From a virus (Duplodnaviria; Heunggongvirae; Uroviricota; Caudoviricetes): 8,992 bases of DNA. Of this stretch, positions 590 through 7,774 are shown one piece after another. The stretch covers positions 1-8,992 of IMG/VR virus record IMGVR_UViG_2695420728_000019; one strand, 5' to 3'. The first letter of the stretch is position 1, and each line of letters begins with the position of its first letter. The position numbers and the translations under genes are program-made. Below the pieces are notes generated by a model. The model saw nothing but the letters and a program-made list of their open reading frames with translations. It was not told the origin of the DNA and did not search any database.

Positions 590-1747
590 TTAATCGTCGT
601 CCTGTGGCAGTTCCAGAATCTTGATCGCGTTCGAATCCACCACGCCACCGCCTAAATATTTCTGCGTGAAAATTTTGATAAAGCCCGGCTCTGTCAGGTT
701 GTCCGGTCTGGTGCGCACGCCCGTTTCATGATCAACGATGTAATAACCGCGTTTGAAGTCACCCAGGGCGATAACGTTATCCGGCATAAATTCCAGATAC
801 TCCACCGGAAGCCCCAGCAACGTATCAGGATCACCCGCCTGTAAACGGTCGCGCCAGATGTAATCGCCGTTCGCGTTCTTCACCTTCTGAAGTTTTGCCG
901 CCGTCGTGGAGTTAACCACCCAGACCGCGTTTTTGCGGTATTTTTTACGTAATGCAAATTTCAGGTCGATCAGCGGGTCCGCAGATGTCCACGCCAGAGA
1001 TTCGGAAGGTTTAATTACCTGCAACGTACCAAAATCACGCTCTTTGTCGTTCTTCTCTGCACGGGGTACGGATAAAAAACCTTTTGCTTTTTTGTCACCG
1101 TCGCCCACAACCAGATCGCTTTCTTCGGTTTCCGTGAAGGTGTCGCCAATCTCACCCGTCAGCCATGAAAGGATGTCCACATCGGAAAAATCCACGATTT
1201 CCTGTGTGGTGCGCGGGTACGCATAGACCGGATACAGCTTAATGCTCACCTCGTTAATCTGCGGGGTGCTGGTCTGTTCGCGTGTCTTACCCTCTTCACC
1301 GTGGTTAACGGTCGCACCGCCAGCGGAAACAAGCTGCTTAAACTCGTTGCTGCTGATTTTCTTCACGGTACAGATGCGGCGCATGGTGGATTCATCCGTC
1401 AGCATTCGCATGATTTCGGTGTTCAGTTCGGGGATAACGGTATAACCACCATCAGCGGGAACGCCTGTACTTAATGCGCGGGTTTCACCTGTCAGAATGT
1501 AGTTGCGTAGTTCTGCGGGGTCAGTGGTCTGGCTGCTTTTACCTGGCTTGCTGCGCTCTTCGTCTGCAATGGCTTCAAGGCGGGAAATGTCTTTATCGAG
1601 GGATTCAGCTTTAGCGCGTAATTCGTCAAATTTTGCGCCCTCAGCATCGTTAAGACTGCGGTTTTCTTTTTCCGCGTTCTCCAGCATGTCGCGCATCTGA
1701 TTTTTAATGGCGGTTTTCTGCTGGCGTAATTCGATTATTCTCGGCAT
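590..1747 (-). CDS. Major capsid protein, HK97 fold (385 aa from ATG at 1745-1747)
   Basis: N-terminal coiled-coil delta-domain-like segment (ELRQQKTAIKNQMRDMLENAEKENRSLNDAEGAKFDELRAKAESLDKDISRLEA), followed by blocks typical of the Phage_capsid family (GGYTVIPELNTEIMRMLTDESTMRRI; LVVGDGDKKAKGFL; AVWVVNSTTAAKL; GDPDTLLGLPVEYLEF; IALGDFKRGYYIVDHETGVRTRPD). The track ORF begins at a GTG at 1795; the ATG at 1747 has AGGA 8 nt upstream and is preferred. Confidence 0.85.
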   Translation of the reverse strand: MPRIIELRQQKTAIKNQMRDMLENAEKENRSLNDAEGAKFDELRAKAESLDKDISRLEAIADEERSKPGKSSQTTDPAELRNYILTGETRALSTGVPADGGYTVIPELNTEIMRMLTDESTMRRICTVKKISSNEFKQLVSAGGATVNHGEEGKTREQTSTPQINEVSIKLYPVYAYPRTTQEIVDFSDVDILSWLTGEIGDTFTETEESDLVVGDGDKKAKGFLSVPRAEKNDKERDFGTLQVIKPSESLAWTSADPLIDLKFALRKKYRKNAVWVVNSTTAAKLQKVKNANGDYIWRDRLQAGDPDTLLGLPVEYLEFMPDNVIALGDFKRGYYIVDHETGVRTRPDNLTEPGFIKIFTQKYLGGGVVDSNAIKILELPQDDD

Positions 1748-1783
1748 AAAAAAAGTCCTGGGGTTAAGTAAGGAACTCCAGGA
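1748..1783 (-). promoter_or_regulatory. Stable hairpin (11-bp stem with one G-T wobble, 8-nt loop) followed on the minus strand by T6 and then directly by the capsid ATG; terminator-like or translational control structure
   Basis: Arms 1754-1764 and 1773-1783 (GTCCTGG.../...CCAGGAC core), with 1748-1753 reading TTTTTT on the minus strand. The AGGA Shine-Dalgarno of the capsid gene lies inside the 3' arm. Confidence 0.35.
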
Positions 1784-1836
1784 CGCGGCAAACACTCAAC
1801 CGTTTTTCATAAGGAAATCAGTAATCGCACCGATCG

Positions 1837-1886
1837 TTTTCCCGCCTGGTAATGAATATTGGCGAGCACATTAACAGGCGGGAAAA
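1837..1886. promoter_or_regulatory. Perfect 12-bp inverted repeat TTTTCCCGCCTG / CAGGCGGGAAAA separated by 26 bp, in the intergenic region upstream of the capsid operon
   Basis: Arms at 1837-1848 and 1875-1886 read directly; the spacer is AT-rich (GTAATGAATATTGGCGAGCACATTAA). Lies between the PerC-like terminator and the capsid gene. Confidence 0.35.
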
Positions 1887-2006
1887 TGGCCCCAGCGTCC
1901 TGGCACCACGGGCGAGAATAATCATGATTCAGGTCGGGTAAAATATGCCGTTCCGGTCAGCGAGCAACGTGGAACAACCACGAACAAATAATTTACAAAA
2001 CATGAC

Positions 2007-2027
2007 AAAAAGCCGGATTGCTCCGGC
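2007..2027 (-). terminator. Rho-independent terminator downstream of the PerC-like gene
   Basis: Minus strand reads GCCGGA-GCAA-TCCGGC followed by TTTTTGTCATGTTTTG. Stem 2012-2017/2022-2027, U-tract from 2007-2011; 8 nt after the stop codon at 2035-2037. Confidence 0.55.
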
Positions 2028-2034
2028 TGTGTGA

Positions 2035-5718: not shown

Positions 5719-6004
5719 GTGAAAGGCTCCCAGATGAATTTTAAGGAGTCTCGCTACTACGCTGTCAAACATGGTGGCGAGACGTAACAGGGTTGACAGA
5801 CTGGTCATCTGGAAACCAGCGAGCACAAAGGCTCCCCCGTTACGCCCCGCCATAATGCGGGTATGGGTAGGTTTACGGACACAAAAAAACCGCTTATCGG
5901 ATGTGGGCGGCTGTCCGCCAGATGTATTCAGGCTGTCAAACCCGGTCGCCATGTGGGCGACGGGGGAAGCATACAGCCCCGTGATAATTTTTTGCAAGCG
6001 GTTT

Positions 6005-7588: not shown

Positions 7589-7741
7589 TTTCTCGCTATT
7601 TAAAGAGTGATTCGCTAGTGTATAAAAAACCAGTAACACATTAAAAATCAGCTACTTATAAATCCGTACACTTTTTCGCCTCTTGTTCGTAGTTGTTCCG
7701 CATTGTTGCTCATTGTTGCATGTTGTATCTGTTCGCATATC

Positions 7742-7757
7742 CAGTATGCGCATACTG
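7742..7757. promoter_or_regulatory. Perfect 16-bp palindrome CAGTATGCGCATACTG just 3' of the int stop, adjacent to phased TTGTT repeats (7683-7725)
   Basis: Sequence equals its own reverse complement. No flanking T-tract in terminator geometry, so more likely a protein-binding site. Confidence 0.35.
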
Positions 7758-7774
7758 AAAAAACACGAAAAAAA

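Follow-up and report, generated by a model that had tools for sequence, protein, structure and literature searches.

The 287 bases ahead of the capsid gene in this phage satellite most likely contain its own late promoter, a series of repeats that bind a regulator, and a folded mRNA leader in which the ribosome-binding site is hidden. They are thus a candidate on/off switch for capsid production, one that is undescribed in the literature we found. The window, by which we mean the whole 8,992-nt stretch of DNA that was analysed, is a capsid-forming PICI (cf-PICI), a satellite of E. coli phages, with 97% identity to an annotated E. coli island that carries int, an AlpA-type HTH gene, RepA, SSB, PerC, capsid, protease, portal, HNH and TerS/TerL; going by HK97, a cos site is to be expected between HNH and terS. 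cf-PICIs produce tailless capsids of their own and take their tails from phages, and the timing and amount of capsid decide their spread. We place somewhat more belief in than against a four-part model in which the packaging (late) operon of the satellite is controlled from the intergenic region between PerC and capsid. That a control region precedes the capsid operon, as the original prediction had it, and that this region is dedicated and conserved, is supported by comparison across islands: more than 100 related islands share one layout, consisting of four TTGT-type repeats, a weak sigma-70-type promoter and a 5′UTR of about 160 nt with three hairpins, although their leaders fall into three classes of very different sequence (A, B and C; the window's own leader belongs to class A).

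Organization of the region ahead of the capsid gene

The minus strand is the coding strand for all genes of the window, so the control region reads from 2034 to 1748. Its features, together with a related array elsewhere in the island, are the following:

2003–2028, minus strand: intrinsic terminator closing the early/replication operon (stem 2028–2011, U-run 2010–2006)
1958–2000, minus strand: four phased repeats, TTGTAAATTAT / TTGTTCGTGG / TTGTTCCACG / TTGCTCGCTG, a candidate array for AlpA or another island regulator
1937–1942, minus strand: predicted −35 hexamer TTTACC (TT[TG][AT]C at a fixed offset in 29 of 34 distinct variants)
1915–1920, minus strand: predicted −10 hexamer TATTCT (TAnnnT at a fixed offset in 34 of 34 variants)
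1913–1923, minus strand: GATTATTCTCG, complementary at 11 of 11 positions to capsid codons 2–5 (1733–1743) and overlapping the predicted −10 hexamer
1892–1903, minus strand: CCAGGACGC(U)GG, 5′ strand of the alternative helix, formed by the 5′ arm and loop of P2
1887–1908, minus strand: P2, predicted 5′-terminal hairpin with a GACG tetraloop (UGGU.CCAG-GACG-CUGG.GCCA, −13.1 kcal/mol)
1837–1886, minus strand: P3, inverted repeat forming a hairpin with a 14-nt loop and an 18-bp stem that has one mismatch
1778–1788, minus strand: CCGCGUCCUGG, 3′ strand of the alternative helix, formed by the flank and 5′ arm of P4 and mutually exclusive with P4
1755–1784, minus strand: P4, hairpin before the ATG, whose 3′ arm CCAGGAC holds the likely Shine-Dalgarno sequence AGGA
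1748–1754, minus strand: U7 tract linking P4 to the start codon, which may serve as the U-run of a terminator, as a U-rich spacer between Shine-Dalgarno sequence and AUG, or as both
1745–1747, minus strand: start codon of the HK97-type major capsid protein (CDS 590–1747)
7673–7726, plus strand: second phased TTGTTC/TTGTTG array, located between int and alpA in inverted orientation with respect to alpA

The capsid N-terminus downstream of class A leaders, MPRIIELRQQK, aligns with MKKLLELRQQK of the other classes. The leader is carried by 458 of 5426 complete E. coli genomes, is found in the experimentally used O157:H7 islands, and has relatives in many IMG/VR viral contigs, while a blastn search of 50,697 phage records with the leader returned no match. 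Scanning 1748–2034 with the Rfam 15 covariance models at a permissive threshold yielded only chance-level matches to a plant miRNA model (E 1.5–3.5). A leader from Gilliamella (L006; related loci are denoted by L and a number) is too AT-rich for interpretation.

Six nucleotides past the stop codon of the PerC-family gene begins the intrinsic terminator, a G+C-rich hairpin of sequence AGCCGGA-GCAA-TCCGGCT (2028–2011) followed by TTTTTGT with its run of five U. It was detected by the terminator scan and folds with −12.7 kcal/mol (z = −4.3; 0/200 shuffles as good), confirming, with boundaries of 2011–2028, the terminator that had been predicted at 2007–2027 after the replication module. It is kept in leader class A even where a different gene lies upstream, and in L073 it is duplicated, its two copies flanking an inserted phrog_1957 gene. 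The upstream genes themselves vary among islands and include PerC, phrog_1957, ProQ/FinO and divergent genes. Of 139 related loci, only 51 have a PerC-family gene in the 1.5 kb upstream. PerC is thus not an obligatory partner, and the adjacent PerC-like regulator, proposed as a gate for the capsid gene, is ruled out as an obligatory cognate regulator.

In the cf-PICI literature, where we found no account of how the packaging operon is controlled, alpA figures as the master switch and is needed for induction. Particles of EcCIEDL933 were purified from a strain overexpressing alpA only (bioRxiv 10.1101/2025.02.11.637232), so that a helper-phage signal, originally suggested as the gate for capsid expression, is not directly required.

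Predicted promoter and phased repeat arrays

In a gapless, anchored alignment of 34 distinct variants, the two predicted promoter hexamers are conserved at a 16-nt spacing while the spacer between them varies, as expected of a sigma-70-type promoter: the spacer occurs in 28 distinct sequences, with a mean pairwise identity of 0.52 as compared to 0.82 for the hexamers. The homologous class C site, TTTACA-16-TATGTT, was picked up by the promoter scan, whereas the window's own promoter scores 8/12, below the threshold of the scan, and hence went unreported. Judged by the position of the hexamers, transcription is predicted to start near 1908. In L004 and L005, the gene upstream lies on the opposite strand, and the same conserved box (see below), promoter and leader are nevertheless present, which implies that the capsid operon needs a promoter of its own within the intergenic region. 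The region thus most likely holds the satellite's own late promoter, in which case the capsid operon need not rely on a lambdoid-style read-through of the upstream terminator.

The alternative, processive antitermination as in lambdoid phages, would dispense with a local promoter and have an alpA-dependent early polymerase read through both 2011–2028 and 1755–1748. It would account for the two terminator-like structures in series before the capsid gene and for the sufficiency of alpA alone for capsid production, and a Pseudomonas aeruginosa protein named AlpA is indeed a Q-like antiterminator (PMC7969949). However, a sequence search of the PDB with the island AlpA led to the AlpA-family entry 8c3t and to no antiterminator chain at E <= 1, which speaks against antitermination of the P. 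aeruginosa type and makes the shared name a coincidence, assuming that the P. aeruginosa structures (PMC9371919) are in the PDB searched. A Pfam scan of ten ORFs of the window, five of which had no match at all, likewise found no Q or other antiterminator family. Considering in addition the opposite-strand genes of L004 and L005, the fixed 16-nt spacing of the hexamers, and the fact that class B and C leaders lack a U-run at their last hairpin, we judge this reading to be improbable; the dependence on read-through that was originally envisaged gives way, on the comparative data, to a promoter within the region. Elements resembling boxA/boxB (nut-like) were considered by eye, with no convincing match.

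Two further pairings involve this part of the region. The complementarity of 11 bp between the −10 region and capsid codons 2–5 recurs in L059 with one mismatch and one G.U pair (1913–1923 with 1733–1743), and has no place in our model. A long-range helix in class B, between a U-rich segment and the start codon, falls into the variable promoter spacer, is not conserved, and was set aside.

Upstream of the promoter, conservation across islands always begins at the invariant box TGTAAATT, whatever gene precedes it. This box is the first unit of the array at 1958–2000, in which TTGTAAA is followed by TTGTTC-type repeats at a spacing of 10–11 nt; a comparison of 56 distinct variants places TGT repeatedly at offsets 0, 11, ~20 and 31, and TTC at 13, 23 and 33. 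Both the distance from the box and that from the array to the promoter hexamers are fixed, the latter in all classes. The window contains no second copy of the whole box, and the informative unit is the TTGT repeat; matches of the 14-nt box alone to viral contigs are almost all due to chance and uninformative. By eye, the box gave no convincing match to sigma-54, CRP, IHF or Lrp sites, and these readings were set aside.

The pattern TTGT-N6-TTGT-N6-TTGT with at most one mismatch has 5 matches in the window (0.08 expected; 0/200 shuffles), all of them within two arrays, namely the one before the capsid promoter and the second one beside alpA. Over 24 bases, the alpA-side array (7673–7726) is identical to 1964–1987 at 20 positions. 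L434 and L435 keep the second array with constant TTGTTC units and varying spacers, and the phased pattern recurs in L434, L435, L354 and L357. Class B islands with 60–68% AlpA identity have GTTC repeats both beside alpA and in the array upstream of the capsid gene; when class B islands were tested for a second array by local alignment and shared 6-mers, it was clear only for the window, L357 and L356, with a few marginal cases, and in islands with type-2 AlpA (45–48% identity) neither alignment nor k-mer tests found a matching second array. The regulator's own locus and its putative target thus have phased direct repeats in common, and the near-identical array upstream of alpA points to AlpA as the activator that most likely binds at 1958–2000. 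A finding that counts against this assignment comes from a marine PICMI, where expression of alpA left satellite transcription unchanged (PMC10803314).

The two arrays of 10-nt phased direct repeats lie about 5.7 kb apart and bracket the alpA-rep-ssb-perC block, and could accordingly be read as replication-origin iterons flanking the replication operon, which would make the region mainly an origin element. Their analogues in satellite P4 would be the repeats of ori and crr (TGTTCACC), and the TTGTTC motif resembles the P4 type I iteron. The int and alpA genes of the island are P4-like as well (PMC3378721). Yet the repeats do not co-vary with the Rep protein, as P4-type iterons should: the same type of upstream array occurs with unrelated Reps, RepA-like as opposed to DUF927, in L354/L359 and also in L358/L364, and array type tracks AlpA type better than Rep type. 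Together with the constant distance of the array to the conserved −35/−10 hexamers in all classes, this leaves the iteron reading with very little probability, and AlpA-dependent activation of the capsid promoter as the preferred one.

A predicted three-hairpin leader with two competing folds

The region folds far more stably than shuffled sequences, both as a 311-nt stretch (z = −4.8) and when reduced to the predicted 164-nt UTR (z = −5.6). The succession P2-P3-P4 is kept in classes A, B and C as well as in L226, although the stems differ. In P2, for instance, the inner stem is CCAG/CUGG in the window, CUCA/UGAG in classes B and C and CUCC/GGAG in L226, around a constant G(A/G)CG loop.

The long inverted repeat that had been noticed at 1837–1886, with perfect 12-bp arms, is present and in fact extends to 18 bp with one mismatch (arms 1837–1854 and 1869–1886, with 94% complementarity in the repeat search). 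As an RNA, it folds into P3 with −24.0 kcal/mol (z = −6.2, 0/200 shuffles). Its loop length varies (14, 18 and ~9 nt), the mismatch is repaired in L059, and in the other classes its place is taken by at least five hairpins of unrelated sequence, with exchanges of GC for UA and of GC for AU. For these reasons, the repeat does not behave as an operator with fixed spacing; P3 appears to be kept as a structure rather than as a sequence, and to act as an RNA hairpin within the 5′UTR.

Nonetheless, P2 and P3 are good palindromes close to the predicted transcription start, and the 18-bp repeat arms are highly conserved in class A, so that they might act as DNA, being operators for a dimeric repressor or activator. 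A palindromic protein-binding site could equally produce symmetric changes in an inverted repeat, and symmetric half-site substitutions would mimic covariation. Formal covariation is not significant within leader classes because the helices barely vary within each of them, and the double changes in classes B and C all derive from the single L226 lineage. On the other hand, the spacing between the arms shifts while the arms are kept, unrelated hairpins occupy the same place in other classes, G.U pairs occur only on the capsid-sense strand, and the complementarity between P2 and P4 described below, about 100 nt apart, cannot be an operator. We consequently think it very unlikely that P2 and P3 serve as operators, and treat them as RNA hairpins in what follows.

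P4, the last hairpin, has 11-nt arms (1755–1765 and 1774–1784) with one A.C mismatch and an 8-nt loop, and folds with −14.1 kcal/mol (z = −4.45, 0/200 shuffles); only its internal mismatch caused it to be missed by a simple terminator scan. The divergent L059 retains the hairpin, with a U-A pair instead of the A.C mismatch and with a different loop. In class A, the 3′ arm is the most variable part, its variants include G.U and A-U changes, and a few variants weaken the stem. The likely Shine-Dalgarno sequence is paired within this stable local hairpin, in line with the original placement of the ribosome-binding site inside the stem. The better candidate for it is the AGGA of the 3′ arm, which precedes the AUG by 8 nt, as compared to GGAG in the 5′ arm, which is 28 nt away. 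In classes B and C, GGAAACC or GAGAAAACC takes the corresponding place in the 3′ arm of the P4-equivalent hairpin. From these predicted folds, P4 appears to be conserved across classes and to hide the ribosome-binding site.

The predicted hairpin and U6 tract abutting the capsid ATG proved to be real, except that the tract comprises seven T and not six (1748–1754). The segment 1784–1755 plus U7 has the anatomy of an intrinsic terminator, with seven G/C-rich basal pairs directly adjoining the U-run, together with the internal mismatch and the 8-nt loop. All class A variants, including L059, have 7–8 U. As the U-run is missing in classes B and C, occlusion of the ribosome-binding site is presumably the general function of the hairpin, and termination at most a class-specific addition.

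A segment far upstream in the leader can pair with P4. Between 1895–1903 and 1778–1786, complementarity is 9/9, and CCAGGACGC and GCGUCCUGG form an alternative helix of 9–11 bp. In class A, it comprises 11 pairs, 100% of which are paired in 22 distinct sequences, and is essentially invariant. In each lineage tested, the 5′-side strand of P4 ranks first among the duplex partners of P2, and the RNAalifold consensus of classes B and C is an equivalent 12-bp alternative helix. In L226, a change in one column is accompanied by changes in both positions with which it can alternatively pair. The two competing folds lie within 0–8 kcal/mol of each other, and an ON/OFF alternative pairing is predicted in every lineage examined. 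As in attenuators, a conserved helix is mutually exclusive with the terminator hairpin. The terminator-like leader structure of the original prediction thus stands for class A, where terminator anatomy coincides with a competing pairing of the antiterminator type, but does not extend to classes B and C with respect to the U-run.

If the function of P3 or P4 were chiefly that of an RNase III site, cleavage would mature or stabilize the capsid mRNA, and no conformational switch would be involved. P3 is indeed a long, near-perfect duplex (18 bp, and longer in some class B leaders) between two shorter hairpins, and its sequence is free to vary so long as pairing holds. However, an 18-bp duplex with a mismatch is among the shorter RNase III substrates, and the conserved complementarity between P2 and P4 would be left unexplained. 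We regard such a role as the principal function as unlikely; processing by RNase III is compatible with our preferred model and does not exclude it.

A small protein or leader peptide could in principle be encoded by a 35-codon ORF starting with the ATG at 1925 (MIILARGART...). Its first ten residues resemble a 10-codon ORF of classes B and C, including synonymous-looking Leu and Gly codons. But the ORF has no Shine-Dalgarno sequence, its ATG lies in the predicted promoter spacer and is replaced by ATC in several variants of class B, GTG stands in its place in L059, where an in-frame stop is missing, and L047 has a 4-nt insertion within the ORF. The chances of this reading are close to nil, and the leader ORF is not conserved. 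A C4-like RNA of the island (5770–5857), considered as an antisense RNA against the leader, was set aside after a crude test in which the duplex energy was weaker than that of average windows.

Proposed control of the packaging operon and known systems

The analysis shows a set of sequence features that are conserved and constant in spacing, a pair of repeat arrays and two folds in competition, from which we infer the following course of events. The intrinsic terminator at 2011–2028 would end the early operon. The four direct repeats, which precede the predicted start by about 59 to 90 nt, would recruit an island-encoded activator, most likely AlpA, which would turn on the weak TTTACC-16-TATTCT promoter near 1908; the helper phage would act upstream, through induction of alpA. 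The resulting 5′UTR of about 160 nt is expected to fold into P2, P3 and P4. By default, P4 would bury the Shine-Dalgarno sequence and block translation initiation, and in class A, P4 and U7 may also terminate transcription just upstream of the AUG. Pairing of the P4 5′ arm with P2 (CCAGGACGC with GCGUCCUGG), upon a trigger, would exclude P4, free the ribosome-binding site and remove the terminator.

If this model holds, it explains the formation of capsids from alpA expression alone, the leader represents a family of RNAs that is as yet undescribed, and the production of satellite particles could be engineered or silenced, for which the region supplies mutable targets in the repeat array shared with alpA, the weak promoter and the three-hairpin leader with its two folds. 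One can go further and ask whether the GACG hairpin and the competing helix constitute a true riboregulatory switch whose state is sensed by an assembly protein or by another protein that the island encodes. We consider this a long shot; its readers would be, for example, unassembled capsid/delta-domain scaffold, the phrog_1957 small protein or the upstream ProQ/FinO-family protein. Capsid synthesis would then be coupled to the state of assembly or the stage of induction, and class A islands would have a dual transcription-and-translation gate at the first gene of the satellite's capsid operon.

Leader switches are exemplified by the protein-controlled leaders of the bgl/sac type and by the translational com-mom hairpin of phage Mu. 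With attenuators and RBS-sequestering 5′UTR switches, the leader described here shares a hairpin at the start codon that hides the Shine-Dalgarno sequence, followed in class A by a U-run, and an upstream segment that pairs with the 5′ arm of this hairpin in a mutually exclusive helix. It differs from them in that it has no conserved leader peptide, no Rfam match, and a U-run in only one of three leader classes. The late control of lambda (pR′, Q, tR′) likewise places a late structural operon behind a promoter and a subsequent terminator-like leader hairpin. Unlike in lambda, however, we detected no Q-like gene, the island AlpA gave no antiterminator chain, and the hairpin, in contrast to tR′, abuts the start codon and contains the ribosome-binding site.

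In P4, small DNA-binding proteins activate the late promoters Psid and PLL in trans, and the AlpA-like Vis modulates them. The island resembles P4 in being a satellite with P4-like int and alpA, and in having its morphogenetic genes on a weak promoter with upstream protein-binding sites, which are candidates in our case. The sites themselves differ, as we find four 10-nt phased direct repeats (TTGTTC) and saw no TGT-N12-ACA dyad by eye, and the activator is probably the island's own AlpA and not a helper-encoded zinc-finger protein of the Ogr/Delta type. A further parallel is found in TorI, which belongs to the same family of small winged-helix proteins and acts on KplE1 attL, where it binds blocks of three sites, 2 nt apart, with a similar site period of about 10 nt (PMC2951348). 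Unlike the TorI sites, the arrays described here lie away from the attachment site, one before alpA and one before the capsid promoter, which implies a role in transcription.

The gap upstream of the capsid gene

All long ORFs of the window lie on the minus strand (ORF scan), and the window aligns along 95% of its length, with 97% identity, to an annotated island of E. coli 2013C-4991 that sits in tqsA. The order of this island is integrase, AlpA-type HTH, Icd-like, several small ORFs, DUF4222, RepA helicase, SSB and PerC-family regulator, followed by HK97-type major capsid protein, prohead protease, portal, head-closure/connector proteins, HNH, TerS (P27 family) and TerL; Pfam matches in the window itself comprise AlpA (PF05930), PerC, SSB and DUF4222. 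The architecture is that of a capsid-forming PICI like EcCIEDL933 / CP-933C (bioRxiv 10.1101/2022.09.08.507074; PMC3378721). The gap studied here spans 287 nt of the minus strand, from the PerC stop (2035) to the capsid ATG (1747).

Other RNA elements occur on the same strand. Adjoining the Icd-like genes, at 5770-5974, Rfam reports above gathering score a C4 antisense RNA (5770-5857, 72.6 bits) and its a1/b1 target element (5925-5974), plus a sub-threshold isrK-like match; the presence of C4 and a1/b1 in a satellite's early region suggests an antisense-RNA immunity module of the P1/P7 type. A terminator-like hairpin, GAAGGGGCT-AAAA-AGCCCCTTT (559-580), separates the capsid gene (end 590) from that of the prohead protease and may determine the ratio of capsid to protease.

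Repeat, terminator and fold scans of the gap recovered the terminator, the inverted repeat and the hairpin of the original prediction, and RNA folding added a further hairpin, giving the following features:

2028-2006, minus strand: terminator AGCCGGA-GCAA-UCCGGCU-UUUUU (-12.7 kcal/mol, z = -4.3, fold against shuffles)
1908-1887, minus strand: hairpin P2, UGGU.CCAG-GACG-CUGG.GCCA
1886-1837, minus strand: hairpin P3, the inverted repeat, with 18-nt arms (1837-1854 / 1869-1886, 94% complementarity) and a 14-nt loop (-24 kcal/mol, z = -6.2)
1784-1755, minus strand: hairpin P4, beyond a 50-nt linker, 10/11 pairs (-14.1 kcal/mol, z = -4.45), then seven U, then AUG

The inverted repeat had been described as 12 bp with a 26-bp spacer; the repeat search does find 12 perfect pairs at 1837-1886, but these lie within the longer arms and the loop is correspondingly 14 nt. 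Likewise, a hairpin precedes the capsid AUG as proposed, with seven U instead of six and one of its 11 pairs unformed. As for the Shine-Dalgarno sequence thought to reside in the stem, AGGA in the 3' arm, 8 nt before the AUG, is the most plausible candidate; the 5' arm also has a GGAG, at a distance of 28 nt.

Related leaders, predicted promoter and hairpins

Capsid-upstream regions were gathered from several hundred IMG/VR contigs, from a number of complete E. coli genomes and, out of 12 loci with a close capsid relative, from five bacterial genomes; they fall into three leader classes. Class A, the type of the window, comprises E. coli and Shigella leaders and also the divergent L059, which shares 69% capsid identity with the window; class B stems from Rosenbergiella, Citrobacter and Erwinia genomes and many IMG/VR contigs; and class C, from E. 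coli, is class-A-like in its first 60 nt and class-B-like in the remainder. Depending on the island, the gene upstream encodes PerC, a phrog_1957 small protein or a ProQ/FinO-family protein, or lies on the opposite strand, and leader conservation begins at one motif, TGTAAATT, whatever gene precedes. No more than 51 of 139 loci have PerC in the 1.5 kb upstream; the PerC-like regulator, which had been put forward as a plausible gate of the capsid operon, is therefore not an obligatory partner of this region.

The other neighbours merit mention in their own right. Genes of phrog_1957, absent in the window, immediately precede the predicted capsid promoter in 80 of the 139 loci. In the related locus L073 the early-operon terminator is duplicated (1510-1535 and 1865-1890), flanking an inserted 74-codon phrog_1957 gene as if this were a terminator-bounded cassette. 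In some class C islands (L072, 3201-3731, and seven other loci) a gene for a ProQ/FinO-family protein sits just upstream of the predicted capsid promoter. Proteins of this family are RNA chaperones, and a role as trans-acting partner of the structured leader is possible.

Since the gene next to the capsid operon runs divergently in two loci, L004 and L005, a promoter must lie within the intergenic region. With all distinct variants aligned gapless on an invariant tetraloop farther downstream, TAnnnT occurs at one fixed offset in 34/34 variants (TATTCT in the window, 1920-1915), and a TTTACn/TTTTCT hexamer exactly 16 nt upstream of it in 29/34 (TTTACC, 1942-1937). The 16-nt spacer takes 28 different sequences, with a mean pairwise identity of 0.52 versus 0.82 for the hexamers. 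In the class C region, the homologous TTTACA-16-TATGTT is the sole promoter-like site of a consensus scan; the copy in the window scores 8/12, below the scan threshold, and so went unreported there, which fits an activator-dependent promoter. From this comparative anatomy, we infer a transcription start near 1908.

The resulting 164-nt predicted UTR folds at -62.9 kcal/mol (z = -5.6) into P2, P3 and P4, an order kept in every class while the sequences differ. P2 retains its loop, G(A/G)CG; the inner stem reads CCAG/CUGG for class A and CUCA/UGAG for classes B and C, and the L226 lineage has CUCC/GGAG together with a change from GC to AU in the outer stem. The P3 position is filled in other leaders by five or more unrelated hairpins, which show GC<->UA, GC<->AU and CG<->UA exchanges and have a basal stem that is 98-100% paired; within class A the loop measures 14, 18 or ~9 nt, and a mismatch is repaired in L059. 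Such variation fits an RNA hairpin better than an operator of fixed spacing. P4 ends a few nt before the AUG in all classes, with a purine-rich candidate Shine-Dalgarno in its 3' arm; in L059 an A.C mismatch becomes U-A and the loop is replaced. G.U pairs occur on the capsid-sense strand. The U-run, of 7-8 U, is confined to class A, L059 included, which argues for RBS occlusion as the predicted conserved function of P4, with termination at P4-U7 a possibility in class A only.

Competing folds of the leader

P2 and the 5' arm of P4 are also complementary to each other; the class A strands are CCAGGACGC(U)GG (1903-1892) and CCGCGUCCUGG (1788-1778). Across the UTR this arm is the best duplex partner of P2 in 9/9 leaders, which represent five lineages: A, B and C as well as L059 and L226. 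For classes B and C, the consensus structure chosen by RNAalifold is the corresponding long-range helix of 12 bp, 99.6% paired versus 22-48% with the partner columns slid. In L226, U -> G at one position is accompanied by A -> C at each of its two alternative partners, one in P2 and the other in the P4 arm. Within class A, the 3' arm of P4 is the most variable segment, while the strands that also serve the alternative helix are invariant. Formal covariation within each class is not significant because the helices hardly vary: the number of double changes in class A, where the alternative helix is invariant, was reached by 439/500 shuffles, and those of classes B and C all come from one lineage.

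The alternative helix and P4 are mutually exclusive, and enforcing the former costs 0-8 kcal/mol relative to the hairpin fold. P4, when formed, would bury the RBS and, for class A, also place a terminator-like hairpin-U7 before the AUG; formation of the long-range helix would undo both. Separately, 1913-1923, which overlaps the predicted -10, shows 11/11 complementarity to 1733-1743 in capsid codons 2-5 (minus strand), with one mismatch and one G.U in L059. This pairing would arise in read-through RNA only and would block the start region.

Phased repeat arrays and a candidate binder

From its first unit to the -35, the upstream array of the window reads TTGTAAATTAT TTGTTCGTGG TTGTTCCACG TTGCTCGCTG, a row of four TTGT units at 10-11-nt intervals. 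In the set of 56 distinct variants, the recurrent positions are offsets 0, 11, ~20 and 31 for TGT and 13, 23 and 33 for TTC; the first unit (TGTAAATT) is invariant and distinct from the TTGTTC units. The pattern TTGT-N6-TTGT-N6-TTGT (<=1 mismatch) has five matches in the window versus 0.08 expected (0/200 shuffles), all confined to this array and to a second one at 7673-7726, between int and alpA (TTGTTCGTAG TTGTTCCGCA TTGTTGCTCA TTGTTGCATG TTGT), which is identical to the first at 20/24 positions and inverted in orientation relative to alpA. In other E. coli islands, where AlpA is 94% identical, the alpA side retains five or six TTGTTC units with differing 4-nt spacers. Among class B islands, those whose AlpA is 60-68% identical have GTTC repeats in a 10- or 20-nt phase, within a hairpin right before alpA, and the array upstream of their capsid gene has GTTC/ATTC units to match; L354, for instance, carries ATTCATTAACGTTCG upstream of the capsid gene and, in reverse complement, GTTCATTAAAGTTCG beside alpA. 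Local alignment and shared-6-mer tests found no matching second array in islands with type-2 AlpA (45-48% identity).

Several further observations concern these arrays. The window and three identical loci have private substitutions at 1930-1970 (minus strand) relative to all other class A leaders, one of which turns the fourth unit from TTGTTC into TTGCTC. A perfect 16-nt palindrome, CAGTATGCGCATACTG (7746-7761), flanked by minus-strand T-runs, lies between the int stop and the alpA-side array. Class B alpA is itself preceded by a hairpin-U7-AUG, GCUCUCGAACCUUAACGAACGAGAGC-AUUUUUUU-AUG (L404, ~2095-2150; also L354, L362, L407 and L431), a design shared with the window's capsid leader; the hairpin contains two GAAC/GTTC units. 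Upstream of a type-2 alpA (47% identity), L384 has two other arrays of 10-13-nt direct repeats at 2750-2935, one built of GACACGTAAT / AGCACCTAAC units and one of GTTCAT units. In general, alpA seems to be preceded by repeat arrays, which vary in sequence.

The array motif resembles P4 ori/crr repeats (P4 here not being the hairpin), and the arrays might by this likeness be replication iterons; one array type, however, accompanies both RepA-like and DUF927 Rep proteins, which argues against this reading and makes it improbable. We regard AlpA as the best candidate binder, because alpA is required for induction (bioRxiv 10.1101/2022.09.08.507074), its overexpression alone yields EcCIEDL933 particles (bioRxiv 10.1101/2025.02.11.637232), AlpA is reported as a positive autoregulator (PMC11773190), and TorI, a structural relative, binds its sites in blocks of three with 2 nt between them (PMC2951348). 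In a marine PICMI, AlpA acted as an excisionase and left transcription unchanged (PMC10803314).

An Rfam scan of the region gave no family matches, blastn of the leader against 50,697 phage records found no match, and control of the packaging operon is not described in the cited papers on capsid-forming PICIs. While the structures originally noted before the capsid gene are thus real, their interpretation is supported in part only. In kind, the region is a predicted activator-dependent late promoter joined to a predicted RBS-occluding, attenuator-like leader, whose RNA architecture and shared repeat arrays appear undescribed, and it opens late-gene control in a newly recognised family of satellites to direct testing.
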